Source of the DNA: a virus
Virus record (IMG/VR): IMGVR_UViG_3300045988_025231
Length of the DNA stretch: 36,018 bases
Strand: one strand, 5' to 3'
Position 1 is the stretch's first letter; the number at the start of each line of letters is the position of its first letter. Below the pieces are notes generated by a model. The model worked only from the letters and a program-made list of their open reading frames with translations. It searched no databases and was not told the origin of the DNA. A program made the position numbers and the translations under genes. Shown here piece after piece: positions 1-36,018 of this stretch.

Positions 1-119
1 ATTTTTTTGGTTTTCTATAATTCCTTAAAAAATCTACATACGCTCTTTCCCTAGCCCTCTCGTAGATTGGGTGGTATAGTTCGGCAGTCTTCACTATAAA
101 ATCTTTTATCGGGTATTCA
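1..119. repeat. Exact terminal overlap, left copy (1-119 = 35900-36018). It marks a closed 35,899-bp genome.
   Basis: Read directly. The window opens ATTTTTTTGGTTTTCTATAATTCC..., and the same string restarts at 35900 and runs to the last base. The overlap lies inside one continuous minus-strand reading frame. Confidence 0.95.
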
Positions 120-298
120 AACTCTTCTCCGAAAAACTCTAATACTAGATGCCTTGCAAATACCTCCTTCACTGTGAGGCGCAATGGGGATGAAAACTTA
201 TTAAATGCTTCGATGGCTGACTTGCATCGTGCTATGCCCTCCGTTACAGCATCATAATAAAACTTTTCGAGCGCACATAGATTCACTTTTTTCTCCAT
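1..298 (-). CDS. N-terminal part of the first early gene (HTH DNA-binding protein). It continues at 35899 downwards through the circular junction. The full gene is 501 nt, 166 aa.
   Basis: ATG at 298-296. Hand translation gives MEKKVNLCALEKFYYDAVTEGIARCKSAIEAF...EYPIKDFIVKTAELYHP, which joins in frame to the 35697..35993 track ORF. The track ORF begins only at an internal GTG because the window ends there. Confidence 0.75.
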   Translation of the reverse strand, partial: MEKKVNLCALEKFYYDAVTEGIARCKSAIEAFNKFSSPLRLTVKEVFARHLVLEFFGEEFEYPIKDFIVKTAELYHPIYERARERAYVDFLRNYRKPKK

Positions 299-505: not shown

Positions 506-886
506 ATCAAATCACTGTAACTCACTGATAATCAGATAATATGCGATGCCGTGCATTGATGTGCATAGATGAAAATTGGCATCTATTCCGTGTAACTTCC
601 TGCAGATCAGACCGATGCAGTGATGCATTGATAAAATCGGATTTTTCTATAATATACATAAATATGGTGTGTGCGATAATATATAATTACAATATACCTG
701 TTTTCATATATTTAATAATACCTCATTTTATCTATGCATCAATGCAAATATCTATAAATCAGTTAGTTATCCTGCACAGATACAAAAATATTCAACAATG
801 CCTATCAATGCAGCTTGCGCATCACAATGGTTTGTAGCAACTTACGTGCATACTCGAATCTACGGATATACTATATACCTTACAAA
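506..886. repeat. Non-coding element, copy A (diverged duplicate of 21443-21808). It carries GCATTGAT/ATCAATGC motif arrays around an AT-rich core.
   Basis: Conserved blocks shared with copy B: 506-529, 551-571, 705-781 (about 93% identical to 21628-21703), 804-845 and 860-886. GCATTGAT at 553 and 625; ATCAATGC at 738 and 804. Confidence 0.85.
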
Positions 887-19521: not shown

Positions 19522-20686
19522 TTTTCCTTTGATTTTTAGCACCCGGACGGTACTTGGTTATAAGATAGTCGACTGCGTAGCGAAGTGCGTCCATGGCGTG
19601 GTTATTTGCGTCCTGCGGCTTCGTGGTGTCGTACATCCCTGTCATCCTGTCGAGAGTCCACGAGTACTGGTCGAATTCGTCCTGCACGTTCCGTGATCCT
19701 GCGACTACGTGCAACTTGAACTGCTTGACTTCGCTGATCCCCGCAACCACCGATCCTTTGCCCTTGATGCACGGGATGATCTTGCAGCCCAGCCGGGAAA
19801 TCTCGGTGATGCTCTTCTGCTCCGCGGAATCCGCGATGGTGTACGTCCTGTGGAATCCGAGATCATGGAGAACTTCCGAGATGTCCCAGTTGACCATGCC
19901 CGTCCGGTATTCGAGTTCTTGGATGTACAGATCGCTTCCCTTGAAGCCGACACGCACGATTGCCGTGGGGTCTCCGGTGAATCCGAAGTCAAGACCCAAG
20001 CACTGTCCCGTAACATCGGCAGGGAACTCGGGGACCACGTCATAATCCGGATACACGAGTCCTTCGACTCCTCCTGTTTCTCCGAGACCGAAGATACGCC
20101 ACCAGTTCTCGTCCTGCTTGTTTCGCTCGATCTCCTCGATCTGTTCGGGAGTCAAGTACGGATTGTCCTTGTAGGTACTCACGATCTCGACCATCCCCGG
20201 TCCCTTGAAGTAGTCGTGTGCCCAAAACTTCTTGACAGGATTGTAGTCGATGTAGAGCATTAGCCGGGTACGCACCGCCATCTGACGGAACACTTCAAAC
20301 GGGACACGTTGCGCCTCGTTTACGAACAGGATGTCACGGGCAGGACCGAAAATCTTAGACGAGTCCTCGCAGCCGAAGAATTCGATCTGTGACCCGTTCT
20401 CCAGTGAGTAGATGGAATCGGTCAGATTCATGCATTTGTCGTCCCACACGCCTTCGTCTTGCAACATTCGCTTGAAGTCACGGAACATGCCTCGCTTGAT
20501 GCCCGGCATCGTGTCCGTAACGCAGGAGATGAGGAGCGGTGTTTCTGATTCCCTAGCCATGATGTAGAGAAGCTGAAGCATCGACCACGTCTTGGATGAT
20601 CGTGTTCCGCCTCTGCTGGATACGCCCCGGACATCCGGATCGACCGTGGCTTCTAGGAGTTTGTCGAATACGTAGGTTGTCTTCAT
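19514..20686 (-). CDS. terL: Terminase large subunit (PBSX/Terminase_3-like).
   Basis: Walker A-like GGTRSSKTWS, Walker B ILFVNEAQ, and nuclease-domain motifs GLDFGFTGDPTA, ADSAEQKSI and NHAMDALRYA. ATGA overlap with terS. Confidence 0.85.
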   Translation of the reverse strand: MKTTYVFDKLLEATVDPDVRGVSSRGGTRSSKTWSMLQLLYIMARESETPLLISCVTDTMPGIKRGMFRDFKRMLQDEGVWDDKCMNLTDSIYSLENGSQIEFFGCEDSSKIFGPARDILFVNEAQRVPFEVFRQMAVRTRLMLYIDYNPVKKFWAHDYFKGPGMVEIVSTYKDNPYLTPEQIEEIERNKQDENWWRIFGLGETGGVEGLVYPDYDVVPEFPADVTGQCLGLDFGFTGDPTAIVRVGFKGSDLYIQELEYRTGMVNWDISEVLHDLGFHRTYTIADSAEQKSITEISRLGCKIIPCIKGKGSVVAGISEVKQFKLHVVAGSRNVQDEFDQYSWTLDRMTGMYDTTKPQDANNHAMDALRYAVDYLITKYRPGAKNQRKNG

Positions 20687-21294
20687 TCCTTCGGATCGTC
20701 TAGTTTATCGTCACCGTGTTTTTCTCGCTTCTTAGCGACTTTCGCAAGTGCTTGCATACGTTTCGCTGTATCATTGCTTAAAACTTCAACACGCAGCCCG
20801 CCAGTGATCTTCTCGTCGTTGCTGGTGACATCGCTCAATGCCTTAAGCCCGCGAAGCTTCGAAATGTAGTTAGGATCGTACAATCCGACCGATGCACCTT
20901 TGTCCATGTCATCTCTGATCCATTGACGGATCACCCGGATTTCCTCAAGGAACGCAAGGGATTCGTCATCTTGGTATTTCTCGTGCTGCTCCTTGTAAAC
21001 TCGCTCACGGGAATTCAGATAGTCACAGCTTGTACCGAGAAACTGGGTAAAGCCGAATTCCGTTACCAGCAGCTTCTTTCGTACAACATAACTCTGTCCA
21101 GCCATGACACCGCTCTTCACGTAATCGGTCGCTTCGATCGGATGGTTGCGACACCACATCACGTAGTTGTCGAAGACCTCCCGAAGTTGCCCCGGTTCCG
21201 TGAAGAGTGGTGTATGCCCGAACCGCTCCTTGTACAGGGTGTACAGTTCCTCCCCGTAAAAGGGATTATATAAATTCGCTTGGATACTATTCAT
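20683..21294 (-). CDS. terS: Terminase small subunit (putative).
   Basis: Directly upstream of terL and coupled to it. The N-terminal PLFTEPGQLREVFDNYVMWCRNHP segment is typical of small terminases. I prefer the ATG at 21294 because the track TTG start (21324) lies inside the predicted promoter -7 box. Confidence 0.55.
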   Translation of the reverse strand: MNSIQANLYNPFYGEELYTLYKERFGHTPLFTEPGQLREVFDNYVMWCRNHPIEATDYVKSGVMAGQSYVVRKKLLVTEFGFTQFLGTSCDYLNSRERVYKEQHEKYQDDESLAFLEEIRVIRQWIRDDMDKGASVGLYDPNYISKLRGLKALSDVTSNDEKITGGLRVEVLSNDTAKRMQALAKVAKKREKHGDDKLDDPKE

Positions 21295-21321
21295 GCGCAA
21301 AAATGATATTGGTTTCTGAGG

Positions 21322-21353
21322 CAAAGGTAAGCATTATCCCCAGCATCCCCAAA
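21322..21353 (-). promoter_or_regulatory. Late-operon promoter (Bacteroidota type). -33 TTTG (21353-21350), 20-nt spacer, -7 TACCTTTG (21329-21322).
   Basis: Minus strand reads TTTGGGGATGCTGGGGATAATGCTTACCTTTG, 27 nt upstream of the terS ATG. Confidence 0.55.
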
Positions 21354-21442
21354 TTCTACCCATCAAGATGACCTAGCGAATCACGACCCCACAAAATTCC
21401 GCAAATTACCGGATCTCGGAATCTAAGATTGCCAATTCACGG

Positions 21443-21808
21443 TCCTGCATTGATAAACTGCATTGATGCATAGATCATCAATTCACTGTAACTTACTGAT
21501 CGTCAATAAGATGCATTGCTTGTGCATTGATTGCATAGATGTTTTCCTATATTTACCAACGAAATCTTTTGATTGTGTTAAATTGCATATACAATTATAT
21601 ACACTATTTAACAACATCAAAAGAATTCATATATTTAATAATACTCATTTTATCTATGCATCAATGCAAATATCTATAAATCAGTAGGTTATCCTGCATA
21701 GATGAGAAAAATATTATCAATGCACATCAATGCAGCTTGCGCATCACAATGATTTGTAGCAACTTACAAGAATACATAAAACTACGGATGTACTATATAC
21801 TTTACAAA
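21443..21808. repeat. Non-coding element, copy B (diverged duplicate of 506-886).
   Basis: GCATTGAT at 21447, 21460 and 21524 (plus GCATTGCT at 21513). ATCAATGC at 21660, 21716 and 21726. The 21628-21703 core is nearly identical to 705-781. Confidence 0.85.
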
Positions 21809-21924
21809 AACCCTGTTTTCGGGCTATTTTAATCTTATCTAAGCTTACTCTAAGCTTACGTTTAACATTCTACAACTTCTGTTAGGATTTCTTTTGTAAC
21901 AAATTTTCTTAATATTTTTAGTAC

Positions 21925-21978
21925 AAATTTATAAATTCGTGCAAATTGAGAAAATTTATAAATTCGTGCAAATTGAGA
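21925..21978. repeat. Perfect 27-bp tandem direct repeat x2 (AAATTTATAAATTCGTGCAAATTGAGA).
   Basis: Units at 21925-21951 and 21952-21978 are identical. A partial inverted copy follows at about 21985-22013. Confidence 0.9.
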
Positions 21979-22009
21979 GAACTTACGAAATTTGCATAAA
22001 TTCTCTCAA
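21973..22009 (-). terminator. Stem-loop (9-bp stem TTGAGAGAA/TTCTCTCAA, 19-nt loop) directly after the last early gene; candidate early-operon terminator or protein-binding site.
   Basis: Inverted repeat read directly, starting 10 nt downstream of the stop at 22019. There is no clean U-tract. Confidence 0.35.
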
Positions 22010-22018
22010 ATTTCTTTC

Positions 22019-22546
22019 CTACGGAGCTACCTTGTAGCGTTCGCAAATCGATTTCACGAACTGCTTTTTATTCAGTGAACTTCTCTCTCCTTCCACGAAT
22101 TCCCAAGAGTTTCCCGTCCACCGGAAGAAACTCACAGCCCCGTTCACGTAATGCCGGAATTCGTAGATGCGGTGTTCCTCCACATCCCCGACCGTATCCG
22201 TTATATCCGATACGCGGATCAGCCGTTTATTGTGTGACTCCTTAGCCTGTAATTTCTCCTCAAACCGATTAGTTTCGAATCTCTCGTCACTGATCGCGGC
22301 ATTGATCTTAGCGGTACGGGCGCAGCATCTGGTCAGTGGGCTTCTGCGGTCAAACAGCCCGAACACGTACTGCACGAATTCCTCCCGTTTCTTCTCAAAC
22401 AGGTCTGCGGGACCATAGTAGCTGACTTTACCCCGATGGACCCTAGACACGGGCTTCTTCCGGTGCATCCGCAGAAATTGGCACACAGCGAATACGTGTA
22501 CGTTAAACATCATCCCGATATGTCCTAAGTTTACTTGCTTGCTCAT
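22019..22546 (-). CDS. Hypothetical protein (175 aa), last gene of the early region.
   Basis: ATG at 22546 with an ATGA overlap onto the upstream micro-ORF. No motif recognised. Confidence 0.55.
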   Translation of the reverse strand: MSKQVNLGHIGMMFNVHVFAVCQFLRMHRKKPVSRVHRGKVSYYGPADLFEKKREEFVQYVFGLFDRRSPLTRCCARTAKINAAISDERFETNRFEEKLQAKESHNKRLIRVSDITDTVGDVEEHRIYEFRHYVNGAVSFFRWTGNSWEFVEGERSSLNKKQFVKSICERYKVAP

Positions 22547-24359: not shown

Positions 24360-24372
24360 GACTGTTTAATCT

Positions 24373-24470
24373 TAATTGTTACTACTTGTTTAACTTTGAT
24401 GACGCAAATATAAGGGAATTCTTCTGAATTTGCCAAATTTTGAACAAATTATTAATACTCATTAACGTTT
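24373..24470 (-). promoter_or_regulatory. Early promoter cassette 1. AACGTT box, 13-bp palindrome AATTTGGCAAATT over -33 TTTG (24437-24434), -7 TATATTTG (24412-24405), conserved leader.
   Basis: Minus strand reads ...AAACGTTAATGAGTATTAATAATTTGTTCAAAATTTGGCAAATTCAGAAGAATTCCCTTATATTTGCGTCATCAAAGTTAAACAAGTAGTAACAATTAA. It is near-identical to cassettes at 28240-28332 and 33641-33732. Confidence 0.65.
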
Positions 24471-28225: not shown

Positions 28226-28239
28226 AATCTTTATATTTT

Positions 28240-28332
28240 TAATTGTTACTACTTGTTTAACTTTGATGACGCGAATATACGGCAGTCTTCTGAATTTGCC
28301 AAATTTTGAACAAATTTTTAACGTTTGTTAGT
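28240..28332 (-). promoter_or_regulatory. Early promoter cassette 2. Palindrome at 28293-28305, -33 TTTG at 28303-28300, -7 TATATTCG at 28279-28272 (one mismatch), conserved leader.
   Basis: Minus strand reads CTAACAAACGTTAAAAATTTGTTCAAAATTTGGCAAATTCAGAAGACTGCCGTATATTCGCGTCATCAAAGTTAAACAAGTAGTAACAATTAA. Confidence 0.55.
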
Positions 28333-28362: not shown

Positions 28363-28386
28363 AAAAAACCTCCCGTATCGGGCTTC
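28363..28386 (-). terminator. Weak terminator-like signal. Short hairpin CCCG-ATA-CGGG followed by AGG and T6 on the minus strand.
   Basis: Minus strand reads GAAGCCCGATACGGGAGGTTTTTTATT, about 145 nt downstream of the primase stop and just upstream of cassette 2. The stem is only 4 bp. Confidence 0.3.
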
Positions 28387-28530
28387 ACAGCAGGATACAG
28401 GAGGAAAAATATAAATATGTATGACAAACATAAAGAAGTGAAATGTTGACTGCTCTCAGCCTAAAATCTTCTTATCAGTAGTACAAGATACAAATTATAA
28501 CCCTTAAATTCAGTGATGCAAAGATATGTA

Positions 28531-30897
28531 TTAATCTTCGATATCCGAAATAATACGGGTGTAAATTGACTGTCTACCGTAAATATTAACATTTTGCTGT
28601 CCGTTACGGACAAAGCCCAGCCTCTTGAGCGACCCTGCAATCTCCCTAGCCTTAGCTACCGTAAAATCCTTCCGAGGCATCCCAAGACCATCGCACCATA
28701 TCTCGAAGGTGCAGAAATGCTTCCTAGTCTCTGTCCCCTCTTCGAATACGCCTATTCCGTCAACAAAATCCCTCCGGTCAGCGCATACCCAGTTATCCCA
28801 ATCCTTCGGGAATTTCATGTTGACAAACTTCTCGATCAAGCCGTGCATCGAAGATACTTCCGTGTACTCCTCACGAATACCGTTAGCTATGCTTTCGGCT
28901 ACCTTAGATAGTATTAGACTCTCACCAGCATCGTATAGCTCCTTAGCCTCTGCCCATAGCTGGTCGATGGTGTCCTCAAAGGATTTCTCGAACAGGTAGT
29001 GGCTGTTGGCATTCCATTTCACAGCGATCGGAAAGAAACGTCTGTTCCCTGTTTGGTCCTTGAGAAATTCGTCCTCGTTGGTTGACCCGAAGAATACACA
29101 TTGGCGTTTATGTGTCTTGATGCGCTTGGCATAGGCAGCACGATATGTGTCCTCGCGCTTGGACAGGAAGTTCTTCATCACTTCGATGTCTGACTTCTTG
29201 ACGGCTGACAACTCGGCTAGCTCCACCAGCCAAGCATTCTGAATTGACTCGTAAGCCTTCGTGCCTTCCATTGAGGTCATGGAGTCGTTGAACCAACCCT
29301 TCGACAGTCGCTGGACCAGTGTCGACTTACCCGCACCTTGATGGGATACCATGATCAGGGCTGTGTCGAACTTGGTCCCCGGTTCGTAGATGCGGGCAAC
29401 CGCAGCTACCAGCATCTTGCGGAACGCCTCTCTTGTGTAGATCGAATCCTCAGCACCCATGTAGGTTTGAAGGAACATGTCGATACGTGGCTTTCCGTCC
29501 CATACGAGAGAGTCAAGGTATGTCTTGATAGGATGGAAGCCGTTCTTGTTGGCTACGTATTCGATGGCATCGCACATCTTTCCAGTGGAGTAAATACCGT
29601 GGGCTGTCTCAATCCGGTTTCGGATGATTGACTCTGCGGTGTCATCGAAGATGTCCCCCTTGTCCTTGCTGCTGTCGAAAAACGGCTTTCGGGTATACAC
29701 TATGACTCCTCGGAATTGGTCATAGGCGAGCAAGTTGTTGAGCAGAGGATCAGTGCGGAAAGCGTTGACGAAGTTGCGGATGGTCACCTCCTTGCGTCCC
29801 TTGCTGTCAAGATCCCAATCCAGCACTTCTTCTACCTCTTCTACTGATTCATCGGACACTTCATCAAAGTCATCCAAGCAATCATTGGCAGCTACTAGCT
29901 CACGGAGGCATAACTCATCCTCCTGTACCAGTTTAGCCATCGCATGCTCGCTCTCTTCCTTTCCGAGATGCCCGAACAGATGAATGCGCACAAGGTCATA
30001 GGCATTGTATACATGACCGTCCCCGATTGGGTCAGTGGAATGGTGGGAGTACGCGAACTTGTCATCATACACGATCATTCCGGCTGCAGACGACCCACCT
30101 TTATATGTGTAGCGGTCATAGTCGCAATTCTCGTAAACGTCAGACAAGTATTTTTCGATAGCTTCCTGTACGGTGTACACCCGGCAGAACGCACCGATCA
30201 TTCCCGGCTTGCTGGTCGGTTCCCCAGCCTCTGAGACAGTGCTGCGGATCGTGCGCTCCTCGTTATCAGTAAACGCCCATAGACGGACGTCTTTCCACGC
30301 ATCCTCACCTCCGTACATGTCGAGCAACTCGTCTATATTCAACGCCTCGCCATCCTGTCTCTCAAAGTAGAATTCTTGATCTTTGGATACTGATCCCCAA
30401 TACATCAGACGTTCCGCTTGAAAGGTTGTCGGGTCGAACAGTTCGATGCCCATGATCTCCGCTACCTTTCGGCTGGCTGCTTCGTACTCTTCCCGGTTGT
30501 CGATCTCACGGTCCATCGGGATGATAAGACGGTATCTGCGCTTACCGGGGCGGTCTGATCTTGTGCCATATATGACAGCAGCGCATGCGAAGTTCATGGT
30601 GAAATCGAAGAAAAAATCGTCTTCTCCGTAGTCAACGTCTAATGTGATAAGTGATCTGCCTGTTACTGAATTTTTGGTACGTCTTCCGCCAGCTAGAGTT
30701 CCGCCTACGAATCCTCCGACATCCTTGCGGATCGCTTTCTCTGACTTCGCCAGCCTGTCAAACTCCTTCATAGTCTCGCTTCCGACCATCTTGGGCTTCG
30801 ATAGCTCTTCAACTAGGGCTTCCCAAGTATAAGTCTTTCTCTTCCAATTGGTGCTTTTGGAAGAACCTGCAACTGATATAAGATATTTTTCCAACAT
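28531..30897 (-). CDS. Primase/helicase-type replication protein (AEP-like primase N-terminal region plus VirE-family P-loop domain).
   Basis: Walker A SHQGAGKST. The VirE-type block WLVELAELSAVKKSDIEVMKNFLSKREDTYRAAYAKRIKTHKRQCVFFGSTNE...GNRRFFPI. The N-terminal region has an LDVDYG acidic motif. Confidence 0.8.
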   Translation of the reverse strand: MLEKYLISVAGSSKSTNWKRKTYTWEALVEELSKPKMVGSETMKEFDRLAKSEKAIRKDVGGFVGGTLAGGRRTKNSVTGRSLITLDVDYGEDDFFFDFTMNFACAAVIYGTRSDRPGKRRYRLIIPMDREIDNREEYEAASRKVAEIMGIELFDPTTFQAERLMYWGSVSKDQEFYFERQDGEALNIDELLDMYGGEDAWKDVRLWAFTDNEERTIRSTVSEAGEPTSKPGMIGAFCRVYTVQEAIEKYLSDVYENCDYDRYTYKGGSSAAGMIVYDDKFAYSHHSTDPIGDGHVYNAYDLVRIHLFGHLGKEESEHAMAKLVQEDELCLRELVAANDCLDDFDEVSDESVEEVEEVLDWDLDSKGRKEVTIRNFVNAFRTDPLLNNLLAYDQFRGVIVYTRKPFFDSSKDKGDIFDDTAESIIRNRIETAHGIYSTGKMCDAIEYVANKNGFHPIKTYLDSLVWDGKPRIDMFLQTYMGAEDSIYTREAFRKMLVAAVARIYEPGTKFDTALIMVSHQGAGKSTLVQRLSKGWFNDSMTSMEGTKAYESIQNAWLVELAELSAVKKSDIEVMKNFLSKREDTYRAAYAKRIKTHKRQCVFFGSTNEDEFLKDQTGNRRFFPIAVKWNANSHYLFEKSFEDTIDQLWAEAKELYDAGESLILSKVAESIANGIREEYTEVSSMHGLIEKFVNMKFPKDWDNWVCADRRDFVDGIGVFEEGTETRKHFCTFEIWCDGLGMPRKDFTVAKAREIAGSLKRLGFVRNGQQNVNIYGRQSIYTRIISDIED

Positions 30898-32943: not shown

Positions 32944-33030
32944 TTGCACCAACTTACTTAGTTAAATAATAAAATTTAGTTAATAATAAATGAATAAAAA
33001 TTTAAGTTATAAATTAAAAGTTTCTTTGTT

Positions 33031-33624: not shown

Positions 33625-33640
33625 GATTTTTGTTTTTAAG

Positions 33641-33732
33641 TTGTTAATACTACTTGTTTAACTTTGATGACGCAAAAATATAACGTCTATTTGAATTTGC
33701 CAAATTTTGAACAAAATATTAACGTTTATTAG
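33641..33732 (-). promoter_or_regulatory. Early promoter cassette 3. Palindrome at 33694-33706, -33 TTTG at 33704-33701, -7 TATTTTTG at 33680-33673, conserved leader.
   Basis: Minus strand reads CTAATAAACGTTAATATTTTGTTCAAAATTTGGCAAATTCAAATAGACGTTATATTTTTGCGTCATCAAAGTTAAACAAGTAGTATTAACAA. Its upstream end overlaps the stop of the nuclease gene. Confidence 0.65.
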
Positions 33733-35696: not shown

Positions 35697-36018
35697 TTAC
35701 TGTTTTTTAAATGTTAAATATTTTTCTGTAATTTCCGCTTTGCTGAGTCTCAACGCACCGTTCCTGTTACGGTAGTGATTGAGATAGCCTTGTTTTACTC
35801 TGTAGCGTACCGCATTCTCGGTAAGGTCCAAAATACGAGCAGCTTCGCTGATCGTGATCAATTCTAACTTCTTTTCTTGATTCTCCATAAACTCAATTAA
35901 TTTTTTTGGTTTTCTATAATTCCTTAAAAAATCTACATACGCTCTTTCCCTAGCCCTCTCGTAGATTGGGTGGTATAGTTCGGCAGTCTTCACTATAAAA
36001 TCTTTTATCGGGTATTCA
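35697..36018 (-). CDS. C-terminal part of the first early gene: HTH DNA-binding domain (excisionase/MerR-like HTH_17 pattern). It is truncated by the window end and continues at 1..298.
   Basis: ELITISEAARILDLTENAVRYRVKQGYLNHYRNRNGALRLSKAEI fits the lt..EaA..Lgvs..tv...v..G.l...k.g....i pattern. The frame is continuous through the terminal overlap. Confidence 0.7.
   Translation of the reverse strand, partial: EYPIKDFIVKTAELYHPIYERARERAYVDFLRNYRKPKKLIEFMENQEKKLELITISEAARILDLTENAVRYRVKQGYLNHYRNRNGALRLSKAEITEKYLTFKKQ
35900..36018. repeat. Exact terminal overlap, right copy.
   Basis: Identical to 1-119 base for base. Confidence 0.95.

Follow-up and report, generated by a model that had tools for sequence, protein, structure and literature searches.

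The window analysed here, a stretch of 36,018 nucleotides of viral DNA (IMG/VR record IMGVR_UViG_3300045988_025231), contains two copies of an intergenic element, one at each junction between the early and the late gene module. The copies are non-coding and ~370 bp long. Several observations together suggest that both are probably replication origins on which a self-loading SF3 primase-helicase acts, namely the 788-aa protein that the phage itself encodes. These are the anatomy of the copies, the homology of this protein, including its C-terminal domain, to known initiators, the conservation of the pair, equivalent elements that adjoin the helicase gene in many distant relatives, and repeats (iterons) that co-vary with the helicase tail in those relatives. 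Within this reading, the copies are best regarded either as two PriRep-type origins or as one origin with a partner similar to crr of phage P4.

The original prediction had named paired regulatory hubs, replication origins and a duplicated structured RNA as candidates, and had placed the element outside all standard feature classes. This last view can be abandoned, since an origin of a self-loading SF3 primase-helicase, with iterons and an AT-rich region as in SaPI and P4, fits. Among the candidates, the replication origin is now favored, the structured RNA is poorly supported, and the regulatory hub is weakened, but may survive as an added role.

Genome organization

The window is from a gut Bacteroides siphophage. 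Its first and last 119 nucleotides are identical (1-119 and 35900-36018), indicating that the assembly is circular, with a length of 35,899 bp. Every long open reading frame is on the minus strand. The nearest relatives in GenBank are the Bacteroides phages BF1-2 and BT2, with about 86% nucleotide identity, and further relatives include the ~37-38-kb B. thetaiotaomicron siphophages of Hryckowian's cluster alpha. Siphophages of ~36-38 kb are among the commonest isolates on human-gut Bacteroides, Phocaeicola and Parabacteroides, and we know of no mapped origin for any of them. The GC skew falls monotonically along the genome, but is uninformative on origins because every gene is on one strand.

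The early module begins with a 166-aa HTH_17-like protein (encoded across the assembly junction), a 259-aa protein and a DUF2800 exonuclease. It continues with a Gp2.5/Enc34-type SSB, PolA, the 788-aa primase-helicase, a VRR-NUC protein and a SNF2 helicase, and ends with small proteins, the last of which has 175 residues. The late module consists of terS (most likely starting at the ATG at 21294), terL, the virion genes, an amidase, and finally a 210-aa DUF6549 protein. The gene for the 210-aa protein had been taken for a lysis gene, but its product is at most a putative lysis protein, and the amidase is encoded by the preceding gene.

The gene for the 166-aa HTH protein is the first early gene and adjoins copy A of the element. 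The protein has a sub-threshold HTH_17/excisionase-like match in searches of Pfam, PHROGs and NCBIfam, and the 175-aa and 259-aa proteins have no match in these collections. A homologue search with the 175-aa protein returned close relatives only. Its AlphaFold model is poor (pLDDT 57), and the Foldseek matches, none with an E-value below 0.3, are weak and point to winged-helix regulators. With low confidence, the protein may carry an N-terminal winged-helix-like fold.

The element occurs twice, at the module junctions

Copy A (506-886) is located between the stop codon of the last late gene, encoding the 210-aa protein (887), and the early promoter, and its polarity follows the minus-strand genes. 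Copy B (21443-21808) has the late promoter and terS on one side. On the other side is a small terminator-like hairpin that follows the gene for the 175-aa protein, the stop codon of which (22019) is 211 bp away from copy B. Both sets of positions agree with the original prediction. The copies are direct repeats in the same orientation, ~15 and ~21 kb apart on the 35.9-kb circle. One copy is ~6 kb upstream and the other ~7 kb downstream of the helicase gene, both at module junctions.

A MAFFT alignment of 440-900 with 21380-21830 showed collinear blocks between the copies, confirming that the duplication is genuine. A repeat search found 86% identity over 165 nt without gaps (722-886 versus 21644-21808). 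In the predicted core of about 75 bp (705-781 versus 21628-21703), the copies differ by three substitutions and one 1-nt indel. The similarity goes beyond AT-rich low-complexity sequence, as TGCATTGATGCATAGAT, GCATTGAT and ATCAATGCA are over-represented in the genome, and the latter two lie mostly or wholly within the copies. The 17-mer TGCATTGATGCATAGAT occurs 5 times when up to 3 mismatches are allowed (0.08 expected), GCATTGAT occurs 13 times (1.6 expected), with 10 of the 13 occurrences inside the two copies, and ATCAATGCA is the most over-represented 9-mer of the genome, with all 10 occurrences inside the two elements.

A coding function was considered and rejected, since neither the 98-aa open reading frame in copy A (541-837) nor the 74-aa open reading frame in copy B (21463-21687) is conserved. 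The former is shortened to at most 39 codons in 7 of 10 other A copies, including all BF1-2-like ones.

Each copy has two arms of opposed iterons around an AT-rich centre

Each copy is a long imperfect palindrome, with arms that carry opposed 9-mer iterons (TGCATWGAT) around an AT-rich centre, and in either strand the complete element folds back into one long imperfect hairpin. The genome contains 16 matches to TG[CG]AT[ACT]GAT, 6 in copy A and 10 in copy B, and thus all within the elements. The iterons of one arm point mainly one way, with one reversed unit, and those of the other arm wholly the opposite way. They are often paired, at a spacing of 8-10 bp. Read in gene sense, the iterons of the first arm are followed by a nearly invariant block including ATTTATAGATATTT, then by the AT-rich centre (~95-110 bp, 80-85% A+T), and then by the second arm, in which iterons are interspersed with an AGTTAC-containing box. 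The accessory motifs are arm-specific, with GTAAGTTGC on one side and AGTTAC on the other. Host DnaA boxes were considered for the iterons and rejected: some iterons resemble TTWTNCACA, but inconsistently within a genome, and iterons differ between phages of the same hosts.

In copy A, the arms contain 4 and 3-4 iterons. The promoter-proximal arm (506-632) has plus-strand iterons at 552-560, 562-570, 616-624 and 624-632, and accessory CACTGTAACT boxes at 506-534 and 581-609. It is followed by the AT-rich centre (633-729), a candidate DNA-unwinding region. The promoter-distal arm (730-886) has minus-strand iterons at 730-738, 738-746 and 804-812, a degenerate one at 794-802, and an oppositely oriented variant at 772-780. 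The family-wide core AAATATCTATAAAT (746-759), which is ATTTATAGATATTT in gene sense, is also located here, and the nearly invariant 77-bp block (705-781) overlaps this arm.

Copy B contains 6 and 4 iterons. Those of its promoter-proximal arm (21443-21540) are on the plus strand at 21446-21454, 21459-21467, 21467-21475, 21512-21520 (with 1 mismatch), 21523-21531 and 21532-21540, and there is one accessory box at 21477-21505. The AT-rich centre (21541-21651) includes an extra internal palindrome at about 21566-21623. In the promoter-distal arm (21652-21808), minus-strand iterons are found at 21652-21660, 21660-21668, 21716-21724 and 21726-21734, and an oppositely oriented one at 21695-21703. 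The family-wide core was placed at 21668-21681 by the 20,922-bp offset from copy A.

Both centres rank second or third among the least stable 60- and 100-bp stretches genome-wide (z about 4). The interval 21587-21687 in copy B is the second and 631-731 in copy A the third least stable 100-bp stretch, and 675-735 in copy A is the second least stable 60-bp stretch.

Transcription signals next to the copies

The -7 box of Bacteroides promoters has the consensus TAnnTTTG. As predicted, the Bacteroides -7 box TACCTTTG is present as its reverse complement, CAAAGGTA, at 424-431 and 21322-21329. The minus-strand -7 box of the early promoter (424-431) is 75 bp from copy A. That of the late promoter (21322-21329, minus strand), which has a TTTG 20 nt before it, is 114 bp from copy B. 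A scan for sigma-70 promoters, the model of which does not cover Bacteroides promoters, yielded no more hits than shuffled sequences did. Three internal early/middle promoters have an upstream box, AAACGTTAA, in common, and do not have iterons; a weaker form of this box is present at the promoter adjacent to copy A.

Directly upstream of copy B in gene sense, a small GC hairpin is followed by a T run (CCCGAAAACAGGGTTTTT, 21805-21824, minus strand). Variants of its stem in relatives preserve pairing, and it is probably the terminator of the early/middle operon. A terminator scan called none around either copy, this hairpin included. Since no terminator was found by the scan between the last late gene and copy A, late transcripts probably run through copy A.

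The primase-helicase resembles self-loading initiators

The 788-aa protein (28531-30897, minus strand) is a primase-helicase of the PriRep type, with an SF3/VapE helicase homologous to SaPI1 Rep1 (PDB 7PDS). It matches the VapE-like family PF05272 with an E-value of 3.3e-76, and its residues 380-701, the helicase, match Rep1 in 7PDS with an E-value of 1.6e-71. For the N-terminal part, matches were found among the PHROGs of phage primases. When a profile was built from the last 149 residues in six phages, it matched Rep1 residues 305-462 with an E-value of 9.2e-7. The C-terminal domain of the putative initiator thus appears homologous in sequence to the domain of Rep1 that bears the winged helix, and we propose that this domain (about residues 640-788, 28534-28980) reads the iterons. 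A word-indexed homologue search with it returned two fragments only. In the window's clade (defined below), the last 40 residues of the helicase are the most diverged part between iteron groups, with 34% identity versus about 67% overall.

In length and domain order, the 788-aa protein matches PriRep5. The latter is a 790-aa primase-Rep fusion, from which residues 676-790 were removed to obtain a delta-CTD mutant, and this mutant was compared with the wild type for origin binding (PMC9371898). In the window, the stretch after the helicase gene contains a terminator and a promoter and no iteron array.

Related phages keep the pair

The original prediction proposed that related phages would have two copies at the same junctions, and this was found in BF1-2, BT2 and further lineages. 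In BF1-2 and BT2, the two copies occupy the junctions at which they are found in the window. In BF1-3, BT681P2 and SJC12, the element is also present at both junctions, with the iteron TGGATAGAT. Both elements are present in the B. ovatus phage BK687P1, with the repeat ATCATTCACA plus a shared block, and in the Phocaeicola phage BV283P1, with the repeat TGTTCC. The Parabacteroides phage PM116P5 has large palindromes at both junctions that have 8-mers in common. A dyad or repeat element is thus found at each of the two junctions in every relative examined among the phages of Bacteroides, Phocaeicola and Parabacteroides, and the iterons are specific to the lineage.

ATTTATAGnnATTT recurs beside the AT-rich centre in 3 of 3 Bacteroides-phage lineages checked (window type, cluster alpha and BK687P1), despite their differing iterons. 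This family-wide core is not needed for an origin.

A search of IMG/VR with a 19-nt core pattern returned 28 stretches. Two exact hits to the core were present in 6 of 7 related genome-size contigs (an eighth contig in the size range was a chance match). All copies that could be typed were either A type, by an early promoter, or B type, by a late promoter. Over the core and the promoter-proximal arm, the copies are 84-94% (A) and 77-92% (B) identical to the BF1-2 orthologue, and 52-72% identical to the paralogue. By these identities, copies A and B are old paralogues. Since orthologues are closer than paralogues, selection on the shared iterons, and not gene conversion alone, would keep the copies alike. 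The promoter-distal arm of copy A in the window is 80% identical to the paralogue versus 61% to the orthologue, showing that this arm has been converted to B type.

IMG/VR was also searched by alignment of the helicase C-terminal domain, and the best 80 of 514 relatives were analysed with 10-kb flanks. They comprise 42 loci of the window's clade (at least 43% identity in this domain) and 38 distant loci (34-42%). Among these best 80 of 514, the A/B direct-repeat pair was found in 15 of the 16 clade loci covering both junctions. One copy was ~7.5 kb upstream of the helicase C-terminal domain and the other 7.5-9.4 kb downstream of it. An iteron cluster right after the helicase gene was present in none of the 42 loci of the clade. 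The candidate binders (the helicase C-terminal domain, the HTH protein, the 175-aa protein and terS) all diverge along with the iterons inside the clade. Because they diverge together, co-variation within the clade does not discriminate between them, and clean co-variation comes solely from the distant relatives.

In many distant relatives, the iterons follow the helicase gene and track the helicase tail

The A/B pair is absent from the 38 distant loci, again among the best 80 of 514 relatives. Instead, a mixed-orientation iteron cluster (at least 5 copies of one 7-mer, in both orientations) directly follows the helicase stop codon in 17 of them, which is the position of the origin in SaPI. 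Several of these clusters have the layout of a textbook origin. In the three distant loci that were inspected, L090, L102 and L114, the iterons flank an AT-rich stretch. In L090, GGGTCAACA occurs twice, followed by about 100 bp of AT-rich DNA and then by TGTTGACC twice. For most of the helicase sequence, L090 and L114 show 95-100% identity; the exception is the last ~25 residues. Their iterons, GGGTCAACA and TGTAAACA, differ at all seven positions shown, whereas the AT-rich centre is conserved. Throughout the 17 loci, the same C-terminal helicase tail goes with the same iteron. By this comparison, the iteron sequence of the distant loci tracks the last ~25 residues of the helicase.

The distant loci retain genes for the exonuclease, SSB, polymerase, helicase and SNF2 protein. 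No homologues of the HTH, 175-aa or 259-aa proteins were detectable in them (among the best 80 of 514).

Comparison with known replication origins

SaPI Reps are self-loading helicase-initiators with a C-terminal winged helix that recognises short iterons, and the SaPI origin has 6-12 iterons and a central AT-rich region, with at least two iterons per side in opposite directions (PMC9371898). The window phage is similar in its homologous SF3/VapE helicase-initiator, with a fused primase as in the 790-aa PriRep5, in the two opposed iteron sets around an AT-rich centre, and in the number of strict iteron matches per copy (~6-10), which is inside the published range. There are also differences, some of which count against an origin. 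The SaPI origin is single and immediately 3' of rep, whereas the element of the window phage is present twice, at module junctions. The iterons are 9-mers at 8-10 bp spacing, and not the penta- or hexanucleotides of SaPI. Copy B adjoins terS, a common neighbourhood of pac and cos sites. The arm-specific accessory motifs and the family-wide ATTTATAGnnATTT core further distinguish the window elements from SaPI origins, and SaPI is a Firmicutes satellite, whereas the window is from a Bacteroidota phage.

P4 provides a precedent for two sites. Its ori and crr are separated cis sites, ~4.5 kb apart and structurally different. The same iteron is found in both, in direct as well as inverted orientation, and the initiator binds the two sites and loops them together; crr is needed in cis, but is itself not an origin. 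The primase of the P4 alpha protein is of the DnaG type. Like alpha, in which a primase, an SF3 helicase and a C-terminal winged helix follow each other (PMC2777425), the window protein combines in one polypeptide a primase, an SF3 helicase and a proposed origin-binding C-terminal domain. Copies A and B have the same 9-mer, found almost nowhere else, and each lineage has its own iteron. Unlike ori and crr, the two sites of the window phage share a complete two-arm anatomy, and they are 15 and 21 kb apart.

A second precedent is the Bacillus phage SPP1, in which oriL and oriR are two origin regions of one siphophage genome, with the same initiator-binding repeats near AT-rich DNA. Initiation in SPP1 is by G38P, which has no relationship to SF3 helicases and requires a loader and a helicase as separate proteins. 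Moreover, oriL is inside gene 38, and the SPP1 origins are not at module junctions, as the window copies are. In SV40 and other polyomaviruses, an SF3 helicase-initiator binds inverted short repeats by an AT tract in the early/late control region, and this binding couples replication to the early/late switch. SV40 differs from the window phage in being a eukaryotic virus with a single origin between divergent promoters, and a transcriptional role of the element in the window phage is a conjecture.

Alternative explanations

The location of the copies 75-115 bp upstream of the early and late promoters, with conserved placement and polarity, agrees with a purely transcriptional role, in which the 166-aa HTH_17 protein or the 175-aa protein would coat both elements and control the early/late switch by repression, activation, looping or roadblock termination, without any role in replication. 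The position of the HTH gene as the first early gene, the possible, low-confidence winged-helix-like N-terminus of the 175-aa protein, and the lack of an intrinsic terminator between the last late gene and copy A point in the same direction. Nevertheless, we consider this explanation unlikely. As read from the sequence by eye, the last iteron is roughly 50 to 160 bp away from the -7 box, depending on the genome, arguing against a fixed operator geometry, and the internal early/middle promoters use their own AAACGTTAA box and no iterons. Among the best 80 of 514 relatives, the 175-aa protein was detectable in 9 and the HTH protein in 28 of the 42 clade loci, compared with 15 of 16 for the pair, and distant relatives have such elements with no detectable homologue of either protein. 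Even with these reservations, the placement upstream of promoters, the polarity and the arm-specific motifs are not required by an origin, and hint at an added or different role. Two short-repeat arms around a cleavage region are also characteristic of known pac sites (P1 pac, SPP1 pacL and pacR). The copies could by analogy be sites at which the small terminase binds the repeats around a central cleavage region and headful packaging starts. Copy B is 120-480 bp upstream of terS, and headful packaging with a pac site is plausible, since fixed ends were not detected by PhageTerm in the related phages of cluster alpha (10.1101/2020.03.04.977157). However, copy A is ~15 kb from terS, and two equivalent sites per genome would have no obvious use, yet the pair is kept across genera. 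In the distant relatives, the architecture directly follows the primase-helicase gene, the iterons track the helicase tail, and a terS homologue was detected within 10 kb in only 1 of the 38 loci (among the best 80 of 514). We therefore judge packaging sites to be distinctly improbable.

The duplicated structured RNA of the original prediction would be made from the 3' end of the late operon (copy A) or from a promoter of its own, and would act in cis or in trans, similar to put or nut sites, which occur in pairs in lambdoid phages. Transcription of copy A as part of late transcripts is probable, and the sense strand folds better than expected, with z-scores of -3.1 for copy A and -5.3 for copy B. 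The antisense strand folds as well (z = -2.5), and both strands would do so because the DNA of the element is a palindrome. A search of the whole window against Rfam at the gathering threshold gave no match. The RNAalifold consensus of 23 copies is weak (-32 kcal/mol over 496 columns), with two-sided changes in 4 of 58 consensus pairs and breaks in 13, and the conserved units are short repeats in both orientations rather than stems. Copy B is moreover preceded by a terminator-like hairpin. Taken together, a structured RNA has become very improbable. We give as little credence to recombination or partition sites, i.e., to targets of a recombinase that splits and rejoins the modules, or to centromere-like sites used in a plasmid-prophage state. 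Such sites would be compatible with the direct orientation of the repeats on both sides of the 21-kb late module, with the patches in which one copy was converted by the other, and with ~21-kb contigs in IMG/VR that are bounded by the element. Contigs of 21 kb are, however, the expected assembler product of a two-copy repeat, and no integrase, recombinase, ParA or ParB was identified by Pfam, PHROGs and NCBIfam in the 20 proteins scanned, which are encoded in the early module or flank the junctions.

A model for the paired elements

For the origin that we favor, the following course of events can be envisaged. The winged-helix C-terminal domain of the 788-aa primase-helicase would bind the TGCATWGAT iterons, and one helicase hexamer would assemble on each of the two opposed arrays. 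The AT-rich centre between the hexamers would then melt, and the primase domain would prime synthesis, after which PolA, the Gp2.5-like SSB and other replication proteins would take over. Either both copies would fire, or one would be a cis-acting partner of the other, as crr is for ori in P4. In an ancestor of the Bacteroidales clade, the origin would have left the side of the helicase gene, and would now be present in two copies at the early/late junctions. We infer helicase binding, melting of the centre, firing of both copies and the reason for having two copies from the features described above.

The origins might in addition act as an early/late switch, although we think this rather doubtful. 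As the primase-helicase accumulates, it would load at both copies and might also pair them, like ori and crr of P4, and firing or occupancy of the origins would then shut off early transcription and license late transcription. This would resemble the action of the SV40 large T antigen at a single bidirectional control region, with the logic split over two copies because every gene is on one strand. It is also a possibility that recombination between the direct copies yields circles of 21 kb and 15 kb with one origin each.

Novelty and implications

Iteron origins of SF3 primase-helicases are already known, and P4 and SPP1 are precedents for two sites. What appears to be new is that an origin-like element has been relocated to module junctions and stably duplicated there, that the pair is conserved in phages from three gut genera, and that natural swaps of iteron and helicase tail occur. 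In the literature that we searched, the coverage of which was incomplete, we found no description of the element in Bacteroides phages and no paper describing the relocation, the duplication, the conservation of the pair or the tail swaps.

In practical terms, the repeat breaks short-read assemblies, as is apparent from the ~21-kb repeat-bounded contigs and from gaps in GenBank records. Completeness checks that rely on repeats could take the ~21-kb contigs for complete circular genomes. One GenBank relative has a scaffold gap of 100 N inside copy B.

If the copies are origins, they would provide a testable origin and a candidate code between initiator and iteron, with swaps of specificity in the last ~25 residues of the helicase. 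This could aid the construction of phage-derived replicons or of origin-decoy resistance plasmids for Bacteroidales. It would also mean that an origin of the SaPI type can leave its rep gene, duplicate, and persist for a long time as a pair at the boundaries of transcription modules. Given the presence of the pair at these boundaries, one may ask whether these phages couple replication to the early/late switch.

A putative iteron swap and conserved motifs beside the AT-rich centre

The phages represented by the loci L090 and L114 are near-identical, yet the last ~25 residues of their helicases differ. The iterons adjacent to the helicase gene differ as well (L090 8584-8850 vs L114 10415-10690): they read GGGTCAACA in the former and TGTAAACA in the latter, at all seven positions shown. 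Judged from these sequences, the difference would be a natural specificity swap, mapping the candidate reader of the iterons.

Other motifs are retained while the iterons differ. ATTTATAGnnATTT, which adjoins the AT-rich centre of copies A and B (window 746-759 and 21668-21681), is found at the equivalent place in four relatives' loci (L003, L004, L005 and L034). It is kept across three lineages of Bacteroides phages with differing iterons, namely the window type, cluster alpha and BK687P1. AGTTAC boxes are conserved on one arm and GTAAGTTGC boxes on the opposite arm. Possible roles for ATTTATAGnnATTT, AGTTAC and GTAAGTTGC are binding of a host factor, a priming signal or a loading signal.

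Early/middle promoter repeats and the region after the primase-helicase gene

Three repeats of ~95 bp on the minus strand (24362-24455, 28229-28321 and 33630-33722) each contain a promoter of the Bacteroides type, TTTG-N20-TAnnTTTG. They also share the upstream box AAACGTTAA, and their leaders are conserved. The early promoter adjoining copy A belongs to this family in weaker form. By their sequence, the repeats look like a co-regulated early/middle set, separate from the iteron elements.

No iteron array was present directly after the primase-helicase gene of the window, the position of the origin in SaPIs and in distant relatives. What lies directly 3' of this gene is a strong hairpin with a T run behind it (about 28365-28405, minus strand), and then a promoter repeat. 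The genome's 60-bp stretch of lowest stability (32958-33018, 93% A+T) falls in the short intergenic space that separates the genes for SSB and PolA, where no repeats were noted.

The junction between the 175-aa protein gene, copy B and terS

The gene for the 175-aa protein (22019-22546, minus strand) is separated from copy B by a repeat region (21880-22010), which comprises a perfect 27-bp tandem repeat (21925-21978) and inverted units containing TCTCAA. Clusters of TCTCAAA in both orientations occupy the equivalent place in other lineages, at seven loci (L051, L054, L055, L058, L061, L063 and L066). The region may serve as an operator or as an element of a 3'-UTR. A family match for the 175-aa protein was not found, and homologues were detectable in the closest phages only. 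According to an AlphaFold model of low confidence (pLDDT 57), its N-terminus may form a helix-turn-helix that carries a beta hairpin.

On the other side of copy B, the mechanical ORF call for terS (20683-21324, minus strand) begins at a TTG that overlaps the late -7 box. Translation most likely begins at the ATG at 21294; the product then has 203 aa, in agreement with the annotation of the GenBank relative BT2.

Genome ends and assembly

Window positions 1-119 are identical to 35900-36018. This terminal identity reflects overlapping ends in the assembly of a circular contig; the genome itself is 35,899 bp long. The gene for a 166-aa HTH protein (minus strand, 298..1 joined to 35899..35697) crosses the assembly junction.

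Short-read assemblies are broken by the two-copy A/B element. The IMG/VR contig 3300045988_015664 (21,028 bp) has the element core at each end, 3300045988_005964 (21,921 bp) holds both copies, and further contigs of ~21 kb terminate at the element (3300045988_009419, _011011 and _002351 among those listed). GenBank entry PQ571261 (BF1-4; 21,110 bp), deposited as a "complete genome", extends from A to B, and a scaffold gap of 100 N lies within copy B of BV283P1 (OP172741, L035). Where completeness is judged from terminal repeats, the A/B repeat could mislead the call.
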